From: an archaeon
GTDB lineage: Archaea; Iainarchaeota; Iainarchaeia; Iainarchaeales; CSSED10-239
Direction of reading: 5' to 3'
Assembly (NCBI GenBank): GCA_037147375.1
Contig: JBAWVI010000040.1
Coordinates: 1-8,372 of the forward strand
Length of the DNA stretch: 8,372 bases
This document shows positions 1,278-7,506 of the stretch, piece after piece; the first letter of the stretch is position 1; the number at the start of each line of letters is the position of its first letter. Made by a program: the position numbers and the translations under genes. Below the pieces are notes generated by a model, which was given only the letters and a program-made list of their open reading frames with translations, had not been told where the DNA came from and did no database searches.

Positions 1278-1316
1278 GAAAAGGATTAAACCCCTTTTCC
1301 TTTTTTCTTTTTTTTT
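1278..1316 (+). terminator. Hairpin plus long oligo-T tract downstream of the surface-protein gene
   Basis: GAAAAGG (1278-1284) pairs with CCTTTTC (1293-1299). This is followed by CTTTTTTC and a 9-T run (1308-1316). Oligo-T tracts act as archaeal terminators. Confidence 0.6.
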
Positions 1317-1352
1317 AAATTTCCCTTGAGACGTAAGTCTAGGCTCTAATTA
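1310..1352 (+). repeat. Repeat family A, copy 1 (T-run + AAA + hairpin core TGAGACGTAAGTCTAGGC)
   Basis: About 38 of 43 aligned positions are identical to 2953-2994. The 18-nt core 1327-1344 is identical to 2969-2986. The core folds as AGAC-GTAA-GTCT (GNRA-type loop), extended by CCT/AGG arms with one bulged G. Confidence 0.85.
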
Positions 1353-1518
1353 TTTTTCTGATTATTTTGGTCAATAGCTTGATCAAAAGCAAGTGGGTTT
1401 TGTTCAACAGGTTGACCAAATAAAGACCTATATTCACCTGTTTTTAATCTGATCTTAATTAAACCACCCTTACTAATTTATACATATTACCAAGTTGACT
1501 AGTGAAAAATAGCTAATT

Positions 1519-1540
1519 ATTAACTAGTGCGCTAGTTAAT
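1519..1540. promoter_or_regulatory. 22-bp near-perfect palindrome (operator-like) upstream of ATPase-1
   Basis: ATTAACTAGTG|CGCTAGTTAAT has 10 of 11 symmetric pairs. An extra ACTAGTG half-site lies at 1498-1504. The palindrome sits just upstream of the (AT)n TATA-like tract at ~1549-1562, which is centred about 26 nt before ATG 1582. Confidence 0.45.
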
Positions 1541-1581
1541 TTAGCGATACATATATATATATCCTTAGTTATATACTATAT

Positions 1582-2913
1582 ATGGAAAGAAATAAAATAA
1601 TCCAACAGAACCCCTGGTGGGGAGAACAGGATGATTCTGATCTTTTACAAGTAAGTAAATCTAAATTTAAAATAGATAGAATAAGTTTACAGGTAGTAAA
1701 AGGAAAAGTATATCTAATCAAAGGACCAAGAAGAGTAGGTAAAACAATATACCTAAAACAAATTGCTAGAGATAATAAAGATAGAGCACTTTATATTAAT
1801 TTAGATTCTTTTTCAAACACAAAACCAAATGAATTAATAAGAGAAATAGAATCATTTATTAATCTTAAAAAAGATGCAATAATACTTATAGATGAAGTCC
1901 AAAATTTAAAAGATAATTGCTCATTTTTAAAAGCAATGTCAGATTTAAATATATTAAAAGAGGCAACAGTCTTTGTAACTGGTTCTGATCCAAGAGCAAT
2001 AGAAGTATGCAAACAAAAATTAATTGGAAGATCAGAAGAACAAAGAATAATGGCTCCACTAACCTTTAGACAGTTTTTATTAAATATAACAAAAGAAAAT
2101 AATCTAAAATTAAATAATTCATTACAAAACACAATATCAGTAAAAGATAGTAATAAAATAATAAAAGAAAAATATTTATTATTAGAACCCCATACCATAG
2201 AAATAGAAAAATATTTTGATATATATCTATTAACTGGTGGTTTCCCAGAAACTATTAATTGTTACCTAACAAATAATACAATAACTAAAAAGTACTATGA
2301 AGACTTAATACAGAAAATATTTGAAAAATTAGATAAACAAAAAACAATTTCTATTTTAAGAATACTAAACAATAGTTTGTCTAATTCATTAAAGTATTCT
2401 ACTATATCCCAAAAAGCAGAGTTATCCCCAGATACTGTTAAAAGCTATTTATTTGATTTAAGTGAGTTACTATTATTATTCGAAGTTAAAGAAAAACAAA
2501 ATGATCATCAAAAAAAATATTATTTTAAAGATCCATTTATAATCCACTCAATAAATTCATATTATTCTAATTTAGATCCATTTATGGAGTCTATAAATTA
2601 TATTTTAAATGAACAAACAAAAGGTCAATTAGTTGAAAATGTAGTTGCTGGTCATTTACATAATATTTATTTTCACAATTTACAATATTTATTTACAAAA
2701 AATAAAGAAGTTGATTTTATAATGTATAATAAAGCAATAGAAGTAAAATATAGGGCTAATATCGTCGCTCCTAATAAGATCGCAGGAGATCTAGAATATT
2801 TATTACTTACTAGATATCCTCAAGGGCTAGTTGATATAGAAAAAAATAATACATTAGCAATACCTGTAAGTTCATTTCTTGCTATGTTAGAGCCCCCAAT
2901 TAATTTTTTATAA
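1582..2913 (+). CDS. AAA+ ATPase of the AAA_14/DUF4143 (COG1373-like) type with C-terminal D..ExK nuclease-like motif (paralog 1)
   Basis: 443-aa ORF. The N-terminal NPWW motif is typical of this family. Walker A is GPRRVGKT (aa 48-55, nt 1723-1746). Walker B is IILIDEVQ (aa ~100-107). The C-terminal motif is EVDFIMYNKAIEVKY, with D378 at nt 2713-2715, E387 at 2740-2742 and K389 at 2746-2748. The family call is from memory of the domain architecture. Confidence 0.85.
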   Translation: MERNKIIQQNPWWGEQDDSDLLQVSKSKFKIDRISLQVVKGKVYLIKGPRRVGKTIYLKQIARDNKDRALYINLDSFSNTKPNELIREIESFINLKKDAIILIDEVQNLKDNCSFLKAMSDLNILKEATVFVTGSDPRAIEVCKQKLIGRSEEQRIMAPLTFRQFLLNITKENNLKLNNSLQNTISVKDSNKIIKEKYLLLEPHTIEIEKYFDIYLLTGGFPETINCYLTNNTITKKYYEDLIQKIFEKLDKQKTISILRILNNSLSNSLKYSTISQKAELSPDTVKSYLFDLSELLLLFEVKEKQNDHQKKYYFKDPFIIHSINSYYSNLDPFMESINYILNEQTKGQLVENVVAGHLHNIYFHNLQYLFTKNKEVDFIMYNKAIEVKYRANIVAPNKIAGDLEYLLLTRYPQGLVDIEKNNTLAIPVSSFLAMLEPPINFL

Positions 2914-2920
2914 TTTTTGA

Positions 2921-2959
2921 TATCAGTGACTTTACTGATAAAAGGCTTCAACTTTTTTT
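2921..2959 (+). terminator. Hairpin plus T7 run downstream of ATPase-1
   Basis: TATCAGT (2921-2927) pairs with ACTGATA (2934-2940) around a 6-nt loop. A TTTTTTT run follows at 2953-2959. The hairpin / T-run / family-A-core layout is the same as after the surface-protein gene. Confidence 0.5.
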
Positions 2960-2994
2960 AAATTCTCCTGAGACGTAAGTCTAGGCCCTAATAA
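2953..2994 (+). repeat. Repeat family A, copy 2
   Basis: TTTTTTTAAATTCTCCTGAGACGTAAGTCTAGGCCCTAATAA aligns to 1310-1352 with 4 mismatches and 1 gap. Confidence 0.85.
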
Positions 2995-3042
2995 CATCAT
3001 AGATCTATTTAAAAGGATAACTATTAGTATGTTATATACACC

Positions 3043-3066
3043 TAACATATTATTAATAATATGTTA
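3043..3066. promoter_or_regulatory. 24-bp perfect palindrome (operator-like) upstream of ATPase-2
   Basis: TAACATATTATT|AATAATATGTTA has all 12 symmetric pairs matching. An extra TATGTTA half-site lies at 3029-3035. The palindrome is 33-45 nt upstream of the candidate starts at 3099 and 3111. Confidence 0.45.
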
Positions 3067-3098
3067 CTTGCACATAACCAACTATAATGTGATATTTT

Positions 3099-4427
3099 AT
3101 GCGAGATATTATGTCTTATAATCAAAATATTTTAATTTCACAAAACCAATGGTGGAAAGAACAAATATCTATTGATTATAAAGAAAGAGATGAACATCTA
3201 AAAATATTACAATATTTAAAGGAACCTCAAATAATAGCTATAACAGGAATTAGAAGAGTTGGAAAAACAACAACCTTATATAAATTAATTGAAAAATACA
3301 TTTTAGAAGGCTTTAATAAAACAAGTATTTTATTTGTTTCTTTTGATGAACTTAAAGAAGAAAAAATAAGAAACATAATAGAAGATTATTGTATATTACA
3401 CAACAAAGATTTATTCAAAGATAATTTATTATTTTTCTTTGATGAAATTCAAAAAGTTAATAATTGGGAAGATCAATTAAAATCAATATATGATGAACAT
3501 AAACTAAAAGGAAATATTAAAATATTTATATCAGGCTCAGAATCTCTATTTATAAGAAAAAAATCAAAAGAATCTCTAGCAGGAAGAATATATGAATTTA
3601 AATTAAATCCATTATCCTTTAAAGAATATTTATCTTTTATAAATTATAATTTCGATAATATTAATCTATATAATAAAGAGTTATTGCAAAAGTTTAATGA
3701 ATATATTATTTCCCAAGGATTCCCAGAATTAATAAATAAAACAAATAAAGAAATAATAAAGAATTATACTTCTGGAATTATTGAAAAAGTAATATTTAGT
3801 GATATTGCAATTCAGTTTAAAGTCAAAAATCCATCAGTTTTAGAATCAATAGTAAACATAATCTCAAATGAACCTGGGCAGATAATAGATAACAATGGTT
3901 TAGCAAAAGAACTTGGAATATCTAGACAATTAATTTCAACATATTTAAAATATTTGTGTGATTCCTTCTTAGTTTTAAAATTATATAACTTTTCTAAAAA
4001 TCAAAGAAAATCAGAAAGAAAGCAAAAGAAGTATTATCCAATTATTTTACCAAATCAATTGGTCTTTAGTGATGATTATCTTATTAAAACAAAAGTTTTT
4101 GAAAGTATTATTGTTAGTCAATTAGAATCTAATTTTTTTTGGAGAACTCCTCAACAAAATGAAGTGGATATTATATTAACAAAAGATAATAAAATAATCC
4201 CAATAGAAATAAAATATGGTAAAATAGAAACTACAGGGCTTGTTAAGTTTTTAACAACTTTTAATTTAGATAAGGGATATATAATTAGTTATAATGAAGA
4301 AAAAATAATAACAAATAATGTTAAAATTAAAACTAATTCAGGCATAGTTAAAGACGTTAAGAAAACAATTTATGTTATTCCAGCATATAAGTTTTTGCTT
4401 CTTAAAGATAAATATTTATCAGGATAA
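3099..4427 (+). CDS. AAA+ ATPase of the AAA_14/DUF4143 (COG1373-like) type with C-terminal D..ExK nuclease-like motif (paralog 2)
   Basis: 442-aa ORF. ATG 3111 (MSYNQNILISQNQWW) aligns better with the N-terminus of paralog 1 and may be the true start. Walker A is GIRRVGKTT (aa 50-58). Walker B is LFFFDEIQ. The C-terminal motif is EVDIILTKDNKIIPIEIKY, with D357 at nt 4167-4169, E370 at 4206-4208 and K372 at 4212-4214. Confidence 0.85.
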   Translation: MRDIMSYNQNILISQNQWWKEQISIDYKERDEHLKILQYLKEPQIIAITGIRRVGKTTTLYKLIEKYILEGFNKTSILFVSFDELKEEKIRNIIEDYCILHNKDLFKDNLLFFFDEIQKVNNWEDQLKSIYDEHKLKGNIKIFISGSESLFIRKKSKESLAGRIYEFKLNPLSFKEYLSFINYNFDNINLYNKELLQKFNEYIISQGFPELINKTNKEIIKNYTSGIIEKVIFSDIAIQFKVKNPSVLESIVNIISNEPGQIIDNNGLAKELGISRQLISTYLKYLCDSFLVLKLYNFSKNQRKSERKQKKYYPIILPNQLVFSDDYLIKTKVFESIIVSQLESNFFWRTPQQNEVDIILTKDNKIIPIEIKYGKIETTGLVKFLTTFNLDKGYIISYNEEKIITNNVKIKTNSGIVKDVKKTIYVIPAYKFLLLKDKYLSG

Positions 4428-4437
4428 AGAATGGTTC

Positions 4438-4482
4438 TTTAATGAAGCTTGGCCAGCTACCCCCCCGAAAGGAATATATTTA
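4438..4482 (+). promoter_or_regulatory. Repeat family B, copy 1: GC-rich 33-mer fused to a BRE/TATA-like box, upstream of the RhuM gene
   Basis: TTTAATGAAGCTTGGCCAGCTACCCCCCCGAAA (4438-4470) is 31/33 identical to 5529-5561. Its 3' end, CCGAAAGG + AATATATTTA, resembles an archaeal BRE (CGAAA-type) plus TATA box. It lies about 31-40 nt before ATG 4513. Confidence 0.6.
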
Positions 4483-4512
4483 CAATTTACACTAATATAT
4501 GTGTGATTGTAC

Positions 4513-5523
4513 ATGAATAAGGAAATTATATCTGAAAAAAATAGCTTTTTACTTTATAAATCTCCTACTGGAGAAATAAAAATAGACGTATTTTTACATG
4601 ATGAAACAATTTGGTTGACCCAAAAGAAAATAGCAGAATTATTTAGTGTAGAAACAAATACAATTAACTATCATTTAAAAGAAATTTTTAAATCAAAAGA
4701 ATTAGATGAAAATTCAACTATTCGAAAATTTCGAATAGTTCAAAAAGAAGGTTTAAGAGAAGTAGAAAGAGAAGTAGAATTATATAATTTAGATGTAATT
4801 ATTTCTGTAGGATACAGAGTTAATTCTTCAAAAGCAACTCAATTCAGAATTTGGGCAAATAAAATTTTAAAAGAATATATAATTAAAGGATTTGCTATAG
4901 ATGATTATAGATTAAAGAATCCAAATTATTTTATAAATGATTATTTTAACGAACTTCTTGAAAGAATAAGGTCAATTAGAACTAGTGAAAGAAGGATTTA
5001 TCAAAAAATAACAGATATTTTTGCAGAATGCAGTATTGATTATGATTCTAATTCTAAGATTACAAAAGATTTCTATGCTACAGTTCAAAATAAATTTCAT
5101 TATGCAATTACAGGAAGTACAGCTTCAGAAATTATTTTTAATAAATCAGATGCAAAAAAAGTAAATATGGGTTTAACAACTTGGAGAAATGCACCAACTG
5201 GTAAAATTTTAAAATCAGATGTAATTATTGCTAAAAATTATCTTCAAGAAAAAGAGATTAAACAACTCGAGAGAACAGTATCTAGTTTTTTTGATTATAT
5301 TGAGAGAATTGTGGAAAGTAAGAAACTAATGTATATGGAAGATTTAGCAGAAAGTGTTAATAAATTTTTAGAATTTAATGAATATAAAAAGCTAAAAGAT
5401 AAAGGTAAAATTTCTTTTAAAAATGCAGAAAATAAAGCAATCAAAGAATACACTAAATTTAATAAGACTCAAATAATCGAATCTGACTTTGATAAATTTT
5501 CAAAGCGTTTATTAAATAAATAA
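4513..5523 (+). CDS. rhuM: RhuM-family (Virulence_RhuM) protein
   Basis: The ORF track starts at TTG 4507, but ATG 4513 (MNKEII...) is the more likely start. The N-terminal half (LLYKSPTGEIKIDVFLHDETIWLTQKKIAELFSVETNTINYHLKEIFKSKEL...LYNLDVIISVGYRVNSSKATQFRIWANKILKEYIIKGF) matches the conserved RhuM signature as I remember it. The tail is helical and Lys/Glu-rich. Confidence 0.85.
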   Translation: MNKEIISEKNSFLLYKSPTGEIKIDVFLHDETIWLTQKKIAELFSVETNTINYHLKEIFKSKELDENSTIRKFRIVQKEGLREVEREVELYNLDVIISVGYRVNSSKATQFRIWANKILKEYIIKGFAIDDYRLKNPNYFINDYFNELLERIRSIRTSERRIYQKITDIFAECSIDYDSNSKITKDFYATVQNKFHYAITGSTASEIIFNKSDAKKVNMGLTTWRNAPTGKILKSDVIIAKNYLQEKEIKQLERTVSSFFDYIERIVESKKLMYMEDLAESVNKFLEFNEYKKLKDKGKISFKNAENKAIKEYTKFNKTQIIESDFDKFSKRLLNK

Positions 5524-5528
5524 TATAT

Positions 5529-5571
5529 TTTAATGATGCTTGGCCAGCTACCCTCCCGAAAAGTATATACA
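5529..5571 (+). promoter_or_regulatory. Repeat family B, copy 2: same 33-mer plus BRE/TATA-like box, upstream of the ORF6N gene
   Basis: TTTAATGATGCTTGGCCAGCTACCCTCCCGAAA (5529-5561) is followed by AG + TATATACA (5564-5571). The TATA centre lies about 27 nt before ATG 5595, consistent with a leaderless transcript. Confidence 0.6.
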
Positions 5572-5594
5572 CGACCATTTCTATAATATATCTG

Positions 5595-5858
5595 ATGATT
5601 ATACGAATGATAGGAAATAATTTAATTACTCAGGAGAACATAAAATATAAAATTTATAAAATCAGAGATACCCAAGTTATGCTTGATAGAGACTTAGCTA
5701 ACCTATATGAAATAGATGCTATACGTTTGCGTGAGCAAGTGAAAAGAAATATTGCAAGATTTACAAATAAGTTTATGTTTCAATTGAATCTTGTTGAAAT
5801 TGATTTCATGGTATCACAAAATGTGATACCAAGTTTAAAGAAGTTAGCTATCTTGTGA
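5595..5858 (+). CDS. ORF6N (KilA-N-like) domain protein, apparently 3'-truncated or scrambled (possible pseudogene)
   Basis: IYKIRDTQVMLDRDLANLYEIDAIRLREQVKRNIARFTNKFMFQL matches the ORF6N core pattern (..R...VMLD.DLA.LY.V....L...VKRN..RF...FMFQL). The ORF ends at TGA 5856-5858. The next 17 in-frame codons (SQIVTTNLGWDGVPYTP, stop at 5910-5912) resemble the usual family continuation (..SQIVTS..GG....PY.FT..) better than the actual tail VSQNVIPSLKKLAIL does. Confidence 0.7.
   Translation: MIIRMIGNNLITQENIKYKIYKIRDTQVMLDRDLANLYEIDAIRLREQVKRNIARFTNKFMFQLNLVEIDFMVSQNVIPSLKKLAIL
5809..5831. repeat. 23-nt perfect hairpin/palindrome TGGTATCACA-AAA-TGTGATACCA inside the ORF6N 3' end
   Basis: All 10 arm pairs match. 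It shares the TCACA/TGTGA core with the downstream 13-mers. Confidence 0.8.
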
Positions 5859-5878
5859 TCACAAATTGTGACCACAAA
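5853..5878. repeat. Tandem 13-mer x2 (TTGTGATCACAAA / TTGTGACCACAAA), each itself palindromic
   Basis: The two units are 12/13 identical. 5853-5864 (TTGTGATCACAA) is a perfect 12-bp palindrome. 5859-5871 (TCACAA-A-TTGTGA) forms a second, overlapping palindrome. The array spans the ORF6N stop codon. Confidence 0.8.
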
Positions 5879-5891
5879 TTTAGGATGGGAT

Positions 5892-5908
5892 GGGGTGCCT
5901 TACACCCC
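5892..5908 (+). terminator. GC-rich hairpin GGGGTG-CCTTA-CACCCC followed by TTAAATTTA
   Basis: A 6-bp G/C-rich stem in an otherwise ~20% GC region, at the end of the ORF6N remnant frame. A terminator role is inferred only. Confidence 0.3.
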
Positions 5909-5935
5909 TTAAATTTATAGTCTAAATGCAACTCA

Positions 5936-5943
5936 TTTATAAA
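5936..5943 (+). promoter_or_regulatory. TATA box (TTTATAAA) for the wHTH-NTase operon
   Basis: Near-consensus archaeal TATA centred about 26 nt upstream of ATG 5966, implying a leaderless mRNA. ATGCAACT occurs on both sides of it (5926-5933 and 5966-5973). Confidence 0.5.
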
Positions 5944-5965
5944 CCTTTAGCACCACAATATAATT

Positions 5966-6844
5966 ATGCAACTAACAAAGAATGAATTAAGTTGTTTTTT
6001 AGAGATTTTTTCAAATAAACTTACTCCAAAGGAACTATCAAGCAAATTTAAGAAAAGTAAATATCAAATATATAGATATATCTCTAATCTACAAAAATTT
6101 GGTTTGATTACTAAACTCGAACATAGATACCTAGAACCAAGTAAATCAATTCATGCAATTAAACTTGGATTACTATTACAAAAACATCCAGAGATAATAC
6201 ACATATTATCTGATTCTGGATTAGATGTTCTATCTAAACTTCTAATACCTCTAACCATTAATCAATTATCTCTAGAAACTAAATTAAAATCAATAACAAT
6301 ATATAAAATTATAAATAATGCAAAACAAATGTCTATTGTAAGAAAAGAAGAAAAGAAATATTTAATTAATAAACTAATTTGGAAAGACTTATATGAATTT
6401 TTAAATGAATACAATACATTTAATCAAACGATAGATTCTCGTGTACCTGTTAGTTCAAAAATATATTATTCTGATAAAAATGAAGTTATTTTTTCCACAT
6501 TAAAAGAATTACCAAATTATAAAAAAACATCCTTTTCTGTTTTTGTAAACTATGGTTTAGATTTAGGATCAAATACTTATTATTACACAACCAAACAAAA
6601 AAATACACAAAACATAGATGAAGTTGTTTTAGATACTTTAAAAGTATTAGAAAAGGATATGGATTATCATGATTTAATATACTTATCTTTACTTTATTTA
6701 AAGTATAAACCAAAACTAAAATCAATCACACACCCAATACTTGAAAACATTAAACTAATATTAACTGGTCTAAAAATAGATAACTATCCAAGTCTAATTG
6801 AAATAAAAGAAAAAGCAGAACAATATAATATAAAAATAGATTAA
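5966..6844 (+). CDS. Winged-helix (wHTH) DNA-binding protein, candidate AbiEi-like antitoxin/regulator
   Basis: 292-aa ORF. There are two HTH-like segments (LTPKELSSKFKKSKYQIYRYISNLQKFGLITK and LTINQLSLETKLKSITIYKIINNAKQMSIVRK) followed by a ~150-aa C-terminal domain. Its stop lies 2 nt before the start of the NTase gene. The functional call rests on architecture and context, not on demonstrated homology. Confidence 0.6.
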   Translation: MQLTKNELSCFLEIFSNKLTPKELSSKFKKSKYQIYRYISNLQKFGLITKLEHRYLEPSKSIHAIKLGLLLQKHPEIIHILSDSGLDVLSKLLIPLTINQLSLETKLKSITIYKIINNAKQMSIVRKEEKKYLINKLIWKDLYEFLNEYNTFNQTIDSRVPVSSKIYYSDKNEVIFSTLKELPNYKKTSFSVFVNYGLDLGSNTYYYTTKQKNTQNIDEVVLDTLKVLEKDMDYHDLIYLSLLYLKYKPKLKSITHPILENIKLILTGLKIDNYPSLIEIKEKAEQYNIKID

Positions 6845-6846
6845 TA

Positions 6847-7506
6847 ATGATAGATGATATAATTCAAATAGATAATCTATTTCAGGAAATTGATTTGCAC
6901 ATAGATGCTAAAGTTAATATCTATCTTATTGGTGGTGTAGTTTTATTAACTAGAAATTTAAGAAAAGTTACTAAAGATATTGATGCAATCGTTGCATCAA
7001 AAAAAGATTATCAAATATTAAAAACAGTATTTACTAAATTATTGTTTACTGAAAGTAAACCAACAAAAGAGTACAGTCGTCTTAACTTAAGTCAAATATT
7101 TATTAGAAAGGATTATAGAGTTGATTTATTTGAAAAGGTAGTTTGCAAACAACTCGCATTAAGTAAGAATATGATTTCTCGTGCTAAATTATACAAAAAA
7201 TATAATCAAATATCTGTGTATTTTTGTTCAGACGAAGATATTTTTATATTTAAATCAATTACTGATAGGAACGGAGATGTAATTGATTGTATTGGGCTTG
7301 CAGAAAAAAGAATAGATTGGAAAATAATACTTAATGAAATAAAATATCAAATTCAATTAAGTGGAAATGAAATATGGATAACCTTCTTTGAAGAGAGATT
7401 AAATTTAATGGAAGATAAAGGTCTTGTTATTCCAATTATAAAAGAAGTTAGAAAGTTATCTGAAAAATATTATCTTGAACTTGAAAAGCAATTAAATAAT
7501 AAATAA
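6847..7506 (+). CDS. Pol-beta-fold nucleotidyltransferase, candidate AbiEii-like toxin
   Basis: 219-aa ORF. The NTase signature is LIGGVVLLTRNLRKVTKDIDAIV (G29-G30 ... D44-x-D46, nt 6931-6984). A candidate third acidic residue lies in YRVDLFE. A downstream FKSITDRNGDVIDCIGL motif resembles the K..(A)..R..D..D motif of the AbiEii/DUF1814-type NTases. The gene is translationally coupled to the upstream wHTH gene (TAATAATG). Confidence 0.7.
   Translation: MIDDIIQIDNLFQEIDLHIDAKVNIYLIGGVVLLTRNLRKVTKDIDAIVASKKDYQILKTVFTKLLFTESKPTKEYSRLNLSQIFIRKDYRVDLFEKVVCKQLALSKNMISRAKLYKKYNQISVYFCSDEDIFIFKSITDRNGDVIDCIGLAEKRIDWKIILNEIKYQIQLSGNEIWITFFEERLNLMEDKGLVIPIIKEVRKLSEKYYLELEKQLNNK

Follow-up and report, generated by a model that had tools for sequence, protein, structure and literature searches.

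The genes considered here belong to PDC-S01 (COG1373; PF13173 plus PF13635), a candidate defence family that was defined through 'guilt-by-embedding' in BREX, DISARM and type I restriction-modification (RM) loci (bioRxiv 10.1101/2024.01.29.577857). A 2026 survey describes PDC-S01 as an ATPase fused to a member of the PD-(D/E)XK superfamily, with experimental validation pending (PMC12988326). The same survey counts 9,986 instances in archaea and 29,494 in bacteria, ranks PDC-S01 fourth by abundance among prokaryotic defence (candidate) systems, and reports its enrichment in Archaea. DUF4143/COG1373 (PF13635) is also family no. 100 in the 2012 PD-(D/E)XK census of Steczkiewicz et al. (PMC3424549). 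We describe two tandem members, ATPase 1 and ATPase 2, from an 8,372-nt stretch of contig JBAWVI010000040.1 (the window, meaning the whole stretch analysed). We conclude, at a probability of roughly 60%, that they are two separate single-gene PDC-S01 modules, putative ATP-coupled nucleases with a presumed defence role, residing as independent cassettes in a variable hotspot.

1582 to 2913, forward strand: ATPase 1 gene (443 aa; AAA_14 ATPase, lid, winged helix and DUF4143 nuclease-like domain; PDC-S01 family)
3099 to 4427, forward strand: ATPase 2 gene (442 aa; architecture as ATPase 1; PDC-S01 family)

Profile searches place both proteins above the Pfam gathering thresholds for AAA_14 (PF13173, 27 bits) and DUF4143 (PF13635, 28.1 bits), in agreement with an earlier sequence-only reading of this DNA. 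The AAA_14 profile was covered over its full length in both, at 78.2 bits (7.4e-22) in ATPase 1 and 117.6 bits (4.8e-34) in ATPase 2. The DUF4143 matches (59.2 bits, 5.4e-16, and 69.0 bits, 5.3e-19, respectively) span the profile from position 3/4 to 159/160 and end at the IE(V/I)KY motif. All seven PADLOC models of PDC-S01 (7/7) match both proteins, with PDLC04787 the best at 2.4e-27 (ATPase 1) and 9.4e-60 (ATPase 2), and PDC-S01 is a single-gene system for which a partner gene is not required. Neither protein matches a model in NCBIfam. The earlier placement of DUF4143 among PD-(D/E)xK families is borne out by the census entry (PMC3424549). The proposal that these are NTP-driven nuclease modules agrees with the domains, fold topology and residues; it had already been published as PDC-S01 (PMC12988326), and that reading is essentially the published prediction. 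Both genes are new members of a known candidate family, and only their local context is new.

Compared with PDC-S01 as described, nothing essential differs: the proteins match all the models and both Pfam domains and have the single-gene architecture. ATPase 1 carries a ~45-residue helical insertion after the ATPase core and comes from a sparse sub-clade, in which one 50%-identity cluster only is >50% identical to it and the next stands at 36%. ATPase 2 has an extra C-terminal β-hairpin after the nuclease-like domain and is ~50% identical to proteins from Woesearchaeota, Nanoarchaeia, Thermoplasmata and Freyarchaeota metagenome-assembled genomes (MAGs). The ATPase motifs are listed with their invariance in alignments A1 and A2, which were built from a word-seeded search.

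1609 to 1620, forward strand: NPWW, N-terminal motif of ATPase 1 (residues 10-13)
1723 to 1746, forward strand: Walker A of ATPase 1, GPRRVGKT (residues 48-55); G48, R50, G53 and K54 invariant in A2
1879 to 1902, forward strand: Walker B of ATPase 1, IILIDEVQ; D104 and E105 invariant in A2
2029 to 2031, forward strand: R150 of ATPase 1, candidate arginine finger (G149-R150, between α4 and β5); invariant in A2
3246 to 3269, forward strand: Walker A of ATPase 2, GIRRVGKT (residues 50-57); G50, R53, V54, G55, K56 and T57 invariant in A1
3432 to 3452, forward strand: Walker B of ATPase 2, FFFDEIQ; D115, E116 and Q118 invariant in A1

The layout first described by eye, two forward-strand open reading frames (ORFs) each with an N-terminal WW, a Walker A, a Walker B and a C-terminal motif, was thus recovered in full. 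N10, W12 and W13 of ATPase 1 are nearly invariant in A2 and present in ~130/142 homologs from a word-index-free search; the corresponding motif of ATPase 2 is NQWW (residues 16-19). A Gly-Arg pair (R150 in ATPase 1, R163 in ATPase 2) is invariant in the alignments; with respect to Walker B and sensor 1, R150 stands where clamp-loader and initiator AAA+ proteins have their arginine finger, and it probably has that role. The C-terminal motifs are EVDFIMYNKAIEVKY in ATPase 1 (EVDF…IEVKY; E376, D378, E387 and K389) and EVDIILTKDNKIIPIEIKY in ATPase 2 (EVDI…IEIKY; E355, D357, E370 and K372). BLASTP aligns the two proteins at 26% identity over 419 columns (E = 3e-16), close to the visual estimate of about a quarter, and because both also pass the Pfam gathering scores, the resemblance is homology and not chance. 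For ATPase 2, gene callers choose the ATG at 3111 (438 aa), and this start is more likely than that at 3099, with a better fit to the family's N-terminal consensus.

AlphaFold2 (AF2) models of the two proteins have predicted local distance difference test (pLDDT) values of 93.9 for ATPase 1 and 91.1 for ATPase 2, and predicted template modelling (pTM) scores of 0.92 and 0.88. Foldseek matched them at probability 1.0 to Orc1/Cdc6, ORC, RFC and RuvB, in alignments of up to 361-436 columns that take in the winged helix, and we therefore assign the N-terminal two-thirds to an AAA+ base, lid and winged helix. The best PDB match of ATPase 1 was archaeal Orc1/Cdc6 (2qby_B, E = 1.6e-08, 361 columns); ATPase 2 matched RuvB, ORC, RFC and STAND proteins, including the Dark apoptosome and Avs4. 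A full-length profile against PDB gave AAA+ matches only, and single-sequence phmmer searches of PDB were discarded as returning spurious P-loop matches only.

The Orc1/Cdc6 initiators (2qby, 2v1u) have the same order of AAA+ core, lid and winged helix and are the best Foldseek matches (E = 1.6e-08 and 6.4e-07). Unlike them, the window proteins, at 12-15% identity and with no Cdc6/ORC match in Pfam or NCBIfam, add a nuclease-like domain at the C-terminus and an NxWW helix at the N-terminus, and their genes vary between strains instead of belonging to the core. Archaeal proteins that combine ATPase_2 (PF01637) with DUF234 (PF03008) also place an AAA+ ATPase before a C-terminal domain. Among relatives of the window proteins 64/74 weakly match ATPase_2 and 8-15 match DUF234 over the C-terminal domain, and one such protein lies within the L054 array (L numbers denote the loci compared). 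The window proteins differ in staying below the ATPase_2 gathering threshold (ATPase 1, 20.5 bits against 33.2; ATPase 2, no match) and in matching no DUF234 in Pfam; we regard the two as sister families. Avs/STAND-nuclease systems, McrBC, Septu and Gabija likewise couple an NTPase module to a nuclease effector, and Foldseek lists Avs4 and the Dark apoptosome. In contrast to these, neither model has a sensor repeat domain, the nSTAND matches are below threshold in Pfam (nSTAND5, 19 bits against a gathering score of 34; nSTAND3, 21 against 27.2), PADLOC gives no match to such systems, and the nuclease-like domain is C-terminal, after the winged helix.

2611 to 2910, forward strand: C-terminal PD-(D/E)xK-like domain of ATPase 1, residues 344-443 (AF2/DSSP, alignments A2 and A3)
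2635-2637 (E352), 2707-2709 (E376), 2713-2715 (D378), 2740-2742 (E387) and 2746-2748 (K389), forward strand: key residues of ATPase 1, invariant in A2 and A3
4077 to 4424, forward strand: C-terminal PD-(D/E)xK-like domain of ATPase 2, residues 327-442 (AF2/DSSP, alignment A1)
4101-4103 (E335), 4161-4163 (E355), 4167-4169 (D357), 4206-4208 (E370) and 4212-4214 (K372), forward strand: key residues of ATPase 2, invariant in A1

The modelled secondary structure of ATPase 2 (helix 327-342, strands 346-349, 355-362 and 365-372, helix 379-387, strand 392-397) follows the canonical α-β-β-β-α-β order; that of ATPase 1 runs helix 344-366 and strands 368-372, 375-381, 384-389 and 405-410. In both models E lies on α1, ExD on β2 and ExK on β3, as expected for a PD-(D/E)xK core. 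The residues singled out earlier as a possible active site (D378/E387/K389 and D357/E370/K372) hence fall on the expected elements of the α-β-β-β-α-β unit, an agreement of topology, which is what was read from the models. In alignment A3, which covers the C-terminal domain only (32 sequences, mean identity 30%), the invariant columns are exactly E, E-x-D, E-x-K-Y and one P. Domain-only Pfam cross-matches are almost all of PD-(D/E)xK type: DUF234 at 7e-5, and NERD, UPF0102/YraN, Mrr_cat, REase-ARP, PDDEXK_3, PDDEXK_13, AHJR-like and DpnII at E = 1e-3 to 0.1. Can2/Card1 (7bdv), AF1548 (1y88), Hjc/AHJR-like proteins, YraN/UPF0102 and Mrr share the helix-E … (E)xD … ExK pattern in register and the α-β-β-β-α-β order, although the matches are weak (E = 0.1-0.2); the A3 motif is in register with AF1548 and Can2 despite the E-values. 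Can2 is activated by cyclic oligoadenylate through a CARF domain and the others are resolvases or restriction enzymes, whereas the window domain is fused to an AAA+ ATPase and winged helix. The weak matches taken together, the topology and the published assignment support a predicted PD-(D/E)xK fold with an intact E…ExD…ExK site.

The apparently universal invariance of ExK in A1 and A2 proved to be partly an artefact, because a word-seeded search favours sequences that share words such as IEVKY, and it was corrected with two less biased samples. Sample a comprises 142 full-length representatives from the word-index-free search, at 25-54% identity, and sample b the 70 family members from all loci examined. 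In sample a, K54 is kept in 140/142, D104 and E105 in 141/142, R150 in 141/142, E352 in 139/142, E376 in 138/142, D378 in 140/142 and ExK in 128/142. Walker A (including G53 and K54), Walker B and R150 are present in 70/70 members of sample b. Judged from these alignments, the family appears to split in two: both window proteins are of the 'WW + ExK' type, and the other, more distant type lacks the canonical Glu/Lys. The expectation that D, E and K are conserved across homologs accordingly holds for the WW-type clade and fails for the wider family. Given the split, it is informative rather than trivial that both copies keep D..ExK. A third paralog in sibling contigs (L003:3916-5175), ~680 bp upstream of the S-layer gene and outside the window, has N-x-C in place of E-x-K, and some family members of 398-401 aa have no nuclease domain. 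Tandem arrays (L055, L009, L011, L032) usually mix ExK, Q-x-C/T/S and nuclease-less types.

The two ATPase genes occupy an interval between an S-layer-like gene and a T2SSE-type ATPase gene that differs between strains, and that contains two kinds of short direct repeat, D3 and D2.

14 to 1264: S-layer-like gene, left border of the low-GC island
1311 to 1350, forward strand: D3 copy a (core TGAGACGTAAGTCTAGG), 40 nt, 47 nt past the S-layer stop, behind an oligo-T run; left junction of the ATPase 1 cassette
2953 to 2992, forward strand: D3 copy b, 40 nt past the ATPase 1 stop, behind an oligo-T run; right junction of the ATPase 1 cassette
4438 to 4478, forward strand: D2 copy a, between ATPase 2 and the RhuM gene; GC box and BRE/TATA-like sequence (BRE, B recognition element) ~30 nt upstream of the RhuM start
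4507 to 5523, forward strand: RhuM-family gene (PADLOC PDC-S05, 4.7e-147; Pfam Virulence_RhuM, 3e-105)
5529 to 5569, forward strand: D2 copy b, upstream of the ORF6N fragment
5595 to 5858: ORF6N ORF, 87 aa, matching the ORF6N/PDC-S05 N-terminal region only (gene callers: 59 aa from 5679)
5966 to 6844, forward strand: TrmB-type helix-turn-helix (HTH) gene (Pfam)
6847 to 7506, forward strand: DUF6036 nucleotidyltransferase gene (Pfam)

A metagenome scan with the 17-nt D3 core recovered close haplotypes, whose T2SSE fragments are 92-93% identical at the protein level, and D3 and D2 copies in other loci were compared by blastn-short. The arrangements, with protein identities to the window in brackets, are as follows.

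Window: S-layer, D3, ATPase 1, D3, ATPase 2, D2, RhuM, D2, ORF6N fragment, TrmB, DUF6036, T2SSE
L063: S-layer, D3, ATPase 2 (96.6%), T2SSE
L062: S-layer, D3 fused directly to D2, TrmB (88%), DUF6036 (88%), T2SSE
L064: S-layer end, another family member, D3, ATPase 1 (97.7%), D3, ATPase 2 (94.6%), ORF6N-like sequence

The D3 of L063 has, on its left, sequence matching that before copy a of the window and, on its right, sequence matching that after copy b, which indicates that the 1,642-bp ATPase 1 segment was gained or lost by an event inside D3. The single D3 of L063, the D3-D2 fusion of L062 and a D3 between two unrelated ORFs in L068 mark D3 as a cassette junction. Copies a and b are 88% identical in the window and 97.5% identical in strains L003, L004 and L006, and two D3 matches arose by chance in 0/200 shuffles. 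No integrase was found near D3. Loci L061, L065, L067, L069 and L070 also match the D3 core, in dissimilar surroundings rich in GC, and these matches were set aside as unrelated.

Among near-identical strains the ATPase complement ranges from none through ATPase 2 alone to both, so the two genes are independent modules and neither duplicates nor an obligate pair: each is an independently gained and lost cassette in the strain-variable S-layer/T2SSE hotspot. The sequence-only reading had held that this was not a recent duplication, and rightly so: identity between the copies is 26%, each has much closer relatives elsewhere, and strains exist with one copy and without the other. The MAG that contains L008, for example, carries an ATPase 2 relative (59%) elsewhere in the genome (L058). 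Adjacent same-strand members occur in 4/46 genome loci (L008, L009, L011, L032) and at least two members within 10 kb in ~7, while ~39/46 hold a single family member; L054 is also an array and L055 has five members in a row. The tandem layout in the window reflects accumulation at a hotspot.

A third copy of D2 lies at 10881-10916 of L001, upstream of a Bro-N gene, and all three copies sit 26-34 nt upstream of RhuM, ORF6N or Bro-N start codons, with similarity extending to the ATG. On this ground an att site was rejected in favour of a promoter or operator. D2 comprises a GC-rich box, GCTTGGCCAG(C/G)TACCC(C/T)CCCGAAA(G/A)G, with (A/T)ATATA after it, and resembles a BRE/TATA promoter, plus an operator-like box, that genes of the RhuM/ORF6N/Bro-N class have in common. 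RNA-folding z-scores of -0.9 to +1.4 led us to reject RNA structures or hairpin terminators for D3 and D2, and an Rfam scan gave no match, so that the repeats correspond to no known RNA family.

Each ATPase gene has its own upstream elements, separated by 185 nt between the two genes that contain an oligo-T run.

1519 to 1540: 9+9 palindrome ATTAACTAG-tgcg-CTAGTTAAT upstream of ATPase 1, candidate operator
3003 to 3016, forward strand: TATA-like box ATCTATTTAAAAGG upstream of ATPase 2, read from the sequence
3043 to 3066: perfect 12+12 palindrome, arms TAACATATTATT and AATAATATGTTA, between the TATA-like box and the ATPase 2 start, candidate operator

The TATA-like box is a putative promoter of ATPase 2, and the form ATCTATTTAAAA also occurs upstream of its 79% ortholog (L059) and 59% homolog (L058). 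The 12+12 palindrome, matched by 2/300 dinucleotide shuffles, is part of a longer imperfect repeat (I2) and is conserved in L063 and L064, both close strains; at the equivalent position L058 carries another palindrome. The palindromes noted upstream of the two copies are unequal: that of ATPase 1, matched by 31/300 shuffles, does not exceed chance on its own. Palindromes of its AACTAG..CTAGTT type, judged by eye, nevertheless recur upstream of ATPase 1 orthologs in L064 (perfect 10+10), L056 (54% ortholog) and L008. Separate promoters and operator-like sites would fit independent regulation of the two genes. An imperfect inverted repeat at 1366-1420 (TTTGGTCAATAGCTTGATCAAAA / TTTTGTTCAACAGGTTGACCAAA; 23-nt arms, 78% complementarity, 9-nt spacer) sits after D3 copy a, in the long spacer that leads to the ATPase 1 promoter, and similar GTTCAACAG..TTGAC-like sequences occur in L064.

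The window holds ten ORFs of at least 60 aa. GC content falls from ~35% to ~22% across ~1500-7500, with values of 20-26% inside the island and 34-38% in the flanking S-layer and T2SSE genes, and the low-GC island coincides with the strain-variable interval. The T2SSE-type ATPase gene forms its right border and is followed by RPA and MCM genes. A tRNA scan gave no match, and hence the island is not tRNA-associated. The TrmB-type HTH and DUF6036 genes, the most stable residents of the interval, are both kept at 88% identity in L062, which has neither ATPase nor RhuM. They lie 2 nt apart in an arrangement that resembles an AbiE or MNT-type toxin-antitoxin pair; the pair matches no PADLOC system. 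The ORF6N ORF, downstream of the second D2 copy, appears to be either a remnant or a small ORF6N gene that stands alone, and in L064 ORF6N-like sequence comes straight after ATPase 2, without RhuM. Among strains that otherwise differ little, the S-layer-like protein varies strongly (compared in L063, L055 and L056): it is 49% identical to that of L063, where the adjacent T2SSE fragment reaches 93%. Diversifying selection acting on a surface protein beside a defence hotspot would fit this.

More distant loci keep the same frame with other contents. AbiEi/AbiEii and Bro-N genes occupy the equivalent interval in L008 and L056. The L008 interval, with a 76% ATPase 1 ortholog, holds an AAA_14-only protein, AbiEi, AbiEii and Bro-N instead. 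L056, a 193-kb contig labelled 'Candidatus (I)ainarchaeum sp.', has the same S-layer/T2SSE frame (T2SSE fragment 75.6% identical), and its sole family member is an ATPase 1 ortholog (54%) beside AbiEii. Because synteny and best homologs point there, the host is probably a DPANN/Iainarchaeota-type archaeon; a methanogen host is unsupported.

How might such proteins work? From the N-terminus, the predicted architecture comprises a short N-x-W-W helix, an initiator/clamp-loader AAA+ ATPase, a helical lid, a winged helix and the PD-(D/E)xK domain. ATP binding would drive assembly of an oligomer on DNA through the winged helix, and the oligomer would position or license the Mg2+-dependent nuclease domain to cut nucleic acid. 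Hydrolysis, aided by the arginine finger of the neighbouring subunit, may then reset the complex. The biological role would be defence against viruses or other mobile DNA. This reading builds on family membership, fold topology, residue conservation and the independent presence and absence of the two genes. A defence-type context also speaks for it, namely the low-GC island, the adjacent RhuM/PDC-S05 gene, and AbiEi/AbiEii and Bro-N in related intervals. One PDC-S05 (RhuM) member protected E. coli ~1000-fold (PMC12881386).

Several points weigh against it. No activity has been demonstrated for any member of the PDC-S01 family, and when one representative was challenged in E. coli B with T7, T5 and T4, it fell outside the four protective candidates (PMC12881386). 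Payne et al. found that PDCs join other defence systems less often than classical systems do (bioRxiv 10.1101/2024.01.29.577857). In sample b, ExK is kept in only 35/70, Q/N-x-(C/T/S/A/V/I) stands in its place in 28/70 (~40%), and 7/70 have no C-terminal domain; with so many members lacking ExK or the whole domain, cleavage may not be the universal output of the family. The A3 profile matched PDB nucleases at sub-significant levels (AF1548, 1y88, E = 0.12; Can2, 7bdv, E = 0.19), and whole-chain Foldseek against PDB gave no nuclease for either protein, because the AAA+ module dominates.

Could the genes instead serve themselves? As selfish or self-mobilising cassette genes they would act for their own propagation or upkeep instead of host defence, for instance through an addiction-type mechanism or, in a homing-like manner, through cleavage or recombination at D3. 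ATPase 1 does lie between 40-nt direct repeats that are 97.5% identical in some strains, L063 resembles a clean empty site with one D3, family arrays reach five copies (L055), and the single defence test was negative. Family members also occur on 209/72,556 plasmid records, 16 phage records and 31 IMG/VR contigs, a low frequency that is typical of defence genes and compatible with a selfish reading too. We consider this explanation unlikely, given that D3 is found with no family gene beside it (in L062 and L068), that ATPase 2 has D3 on one side only, and that the 76% ATPase 1 ortholog in L008 has neither D3 nor D2. Most family loci, moreover, are solo and chromosomal, and homologous recombination between repeated intergenic sequences explains the cassette polymorphism equally well. 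It is very doubtful that the whole S-layer–T2SSE interval is, in DPANN archaea, an integrase-less, repeat-delimited array with D3/D2 junctions, and that the PDC-S01 ATPase-nucleases, beyond being cargo, participate in the gain and loss of its cassettes by cutting or pairing DNA at D3. If so, the family's main activity would be self-mobilisation or hotspot recombination and not virus restriction, and action at D3 would explain the very high copy number, the mixed-type tandem arrays and the negative phage-defence test.

Other alternatives concern what the proteins do rather than whom they serve. ATP-dependent DNA-binding regulators or sensors (STAND/MalT-like or Orc1-like), using the PD-(D/E)xK domain for DNA binding or oligomerisation and not for catalysis, would accord with the winged helix and Orc1/Cdc6-like fold, the weak nSTAND3 and nSTAND5 matches, the operator-like palindromes upstream, and the many members that have lost ExK or the C-terminal domain. 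This seems rather unlikely: in the clade of the window proteins four acidic residues and the lysine are kept at 90-99% over 25-54% identity, which is hard to reconcile with a non-catalytic domain, and the nSTAND matches remain below gathering with no sensor repeat domain. It is quite improbable that the two neighbours work as a single machine of two components, in which diverged paralogs would hetero-oligomerise as Orc1-1 and Orc1-3 do in their heterodimer. Adjacent same-strand arrays do recur, in four of the 46 genome loci and in L054 and L055, often mixing ExK, Q-x-C/T/S and nuclease-less members, but most of the 46 loci have a single member. ATPase 2 also occurs without ATPase 1 in a near-identical background (L063) and ATPase 1 orthologs without ATPase 2 (L056, L008, L054), and each gene has its own promoter-like region and palindrome, with the oligo-T run in the spacer between them. 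Housekeeping DNA replication or repair factors, as hinted by the fold resemblance to Orc1/Cdc6 and RFC and by the RPA and MCM genes just past the T2SSE gene, are scarcely credible for genes that come and go between near-identical strains, sit in a low-GC island, exist in multiple diverged copies and match no Cdc6/ORC model in Pfam.

We therefore retain the reading of two separate PDC-S01 modules, which leaves the accepted view of the family unchanged. PDC-S01 is common, enriched in Archaea and without demonstrated activity, and whatever aids its testing has some value. The window contributes two high-confidence models in which an Orc1-like AAA+/winged-helix module is joined to a predicted intact PD-(D/E)xK core, together with candidate operators and a short junction repeat. 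It also provides evidence for the division between WW/ExK and Q-x-(C/T/S) or nuclease-less types, often mixed in tandem arrays, and a near-isogenic haplotype set (neither gene, ATPase 2 only, both) in which the paralogs are independent cassettes. Of the by-products, the most interesting are the cassette polymorphism with its delimiting repeats and the division into ExK and Q-x-C/T/S types within mixed arrays. Should the two proteins prove to be ATP-gated nucleases, they would represent compact immune effectors, each encoded by a single gene, of a kind typical of DPANN archaea with their small genomes.

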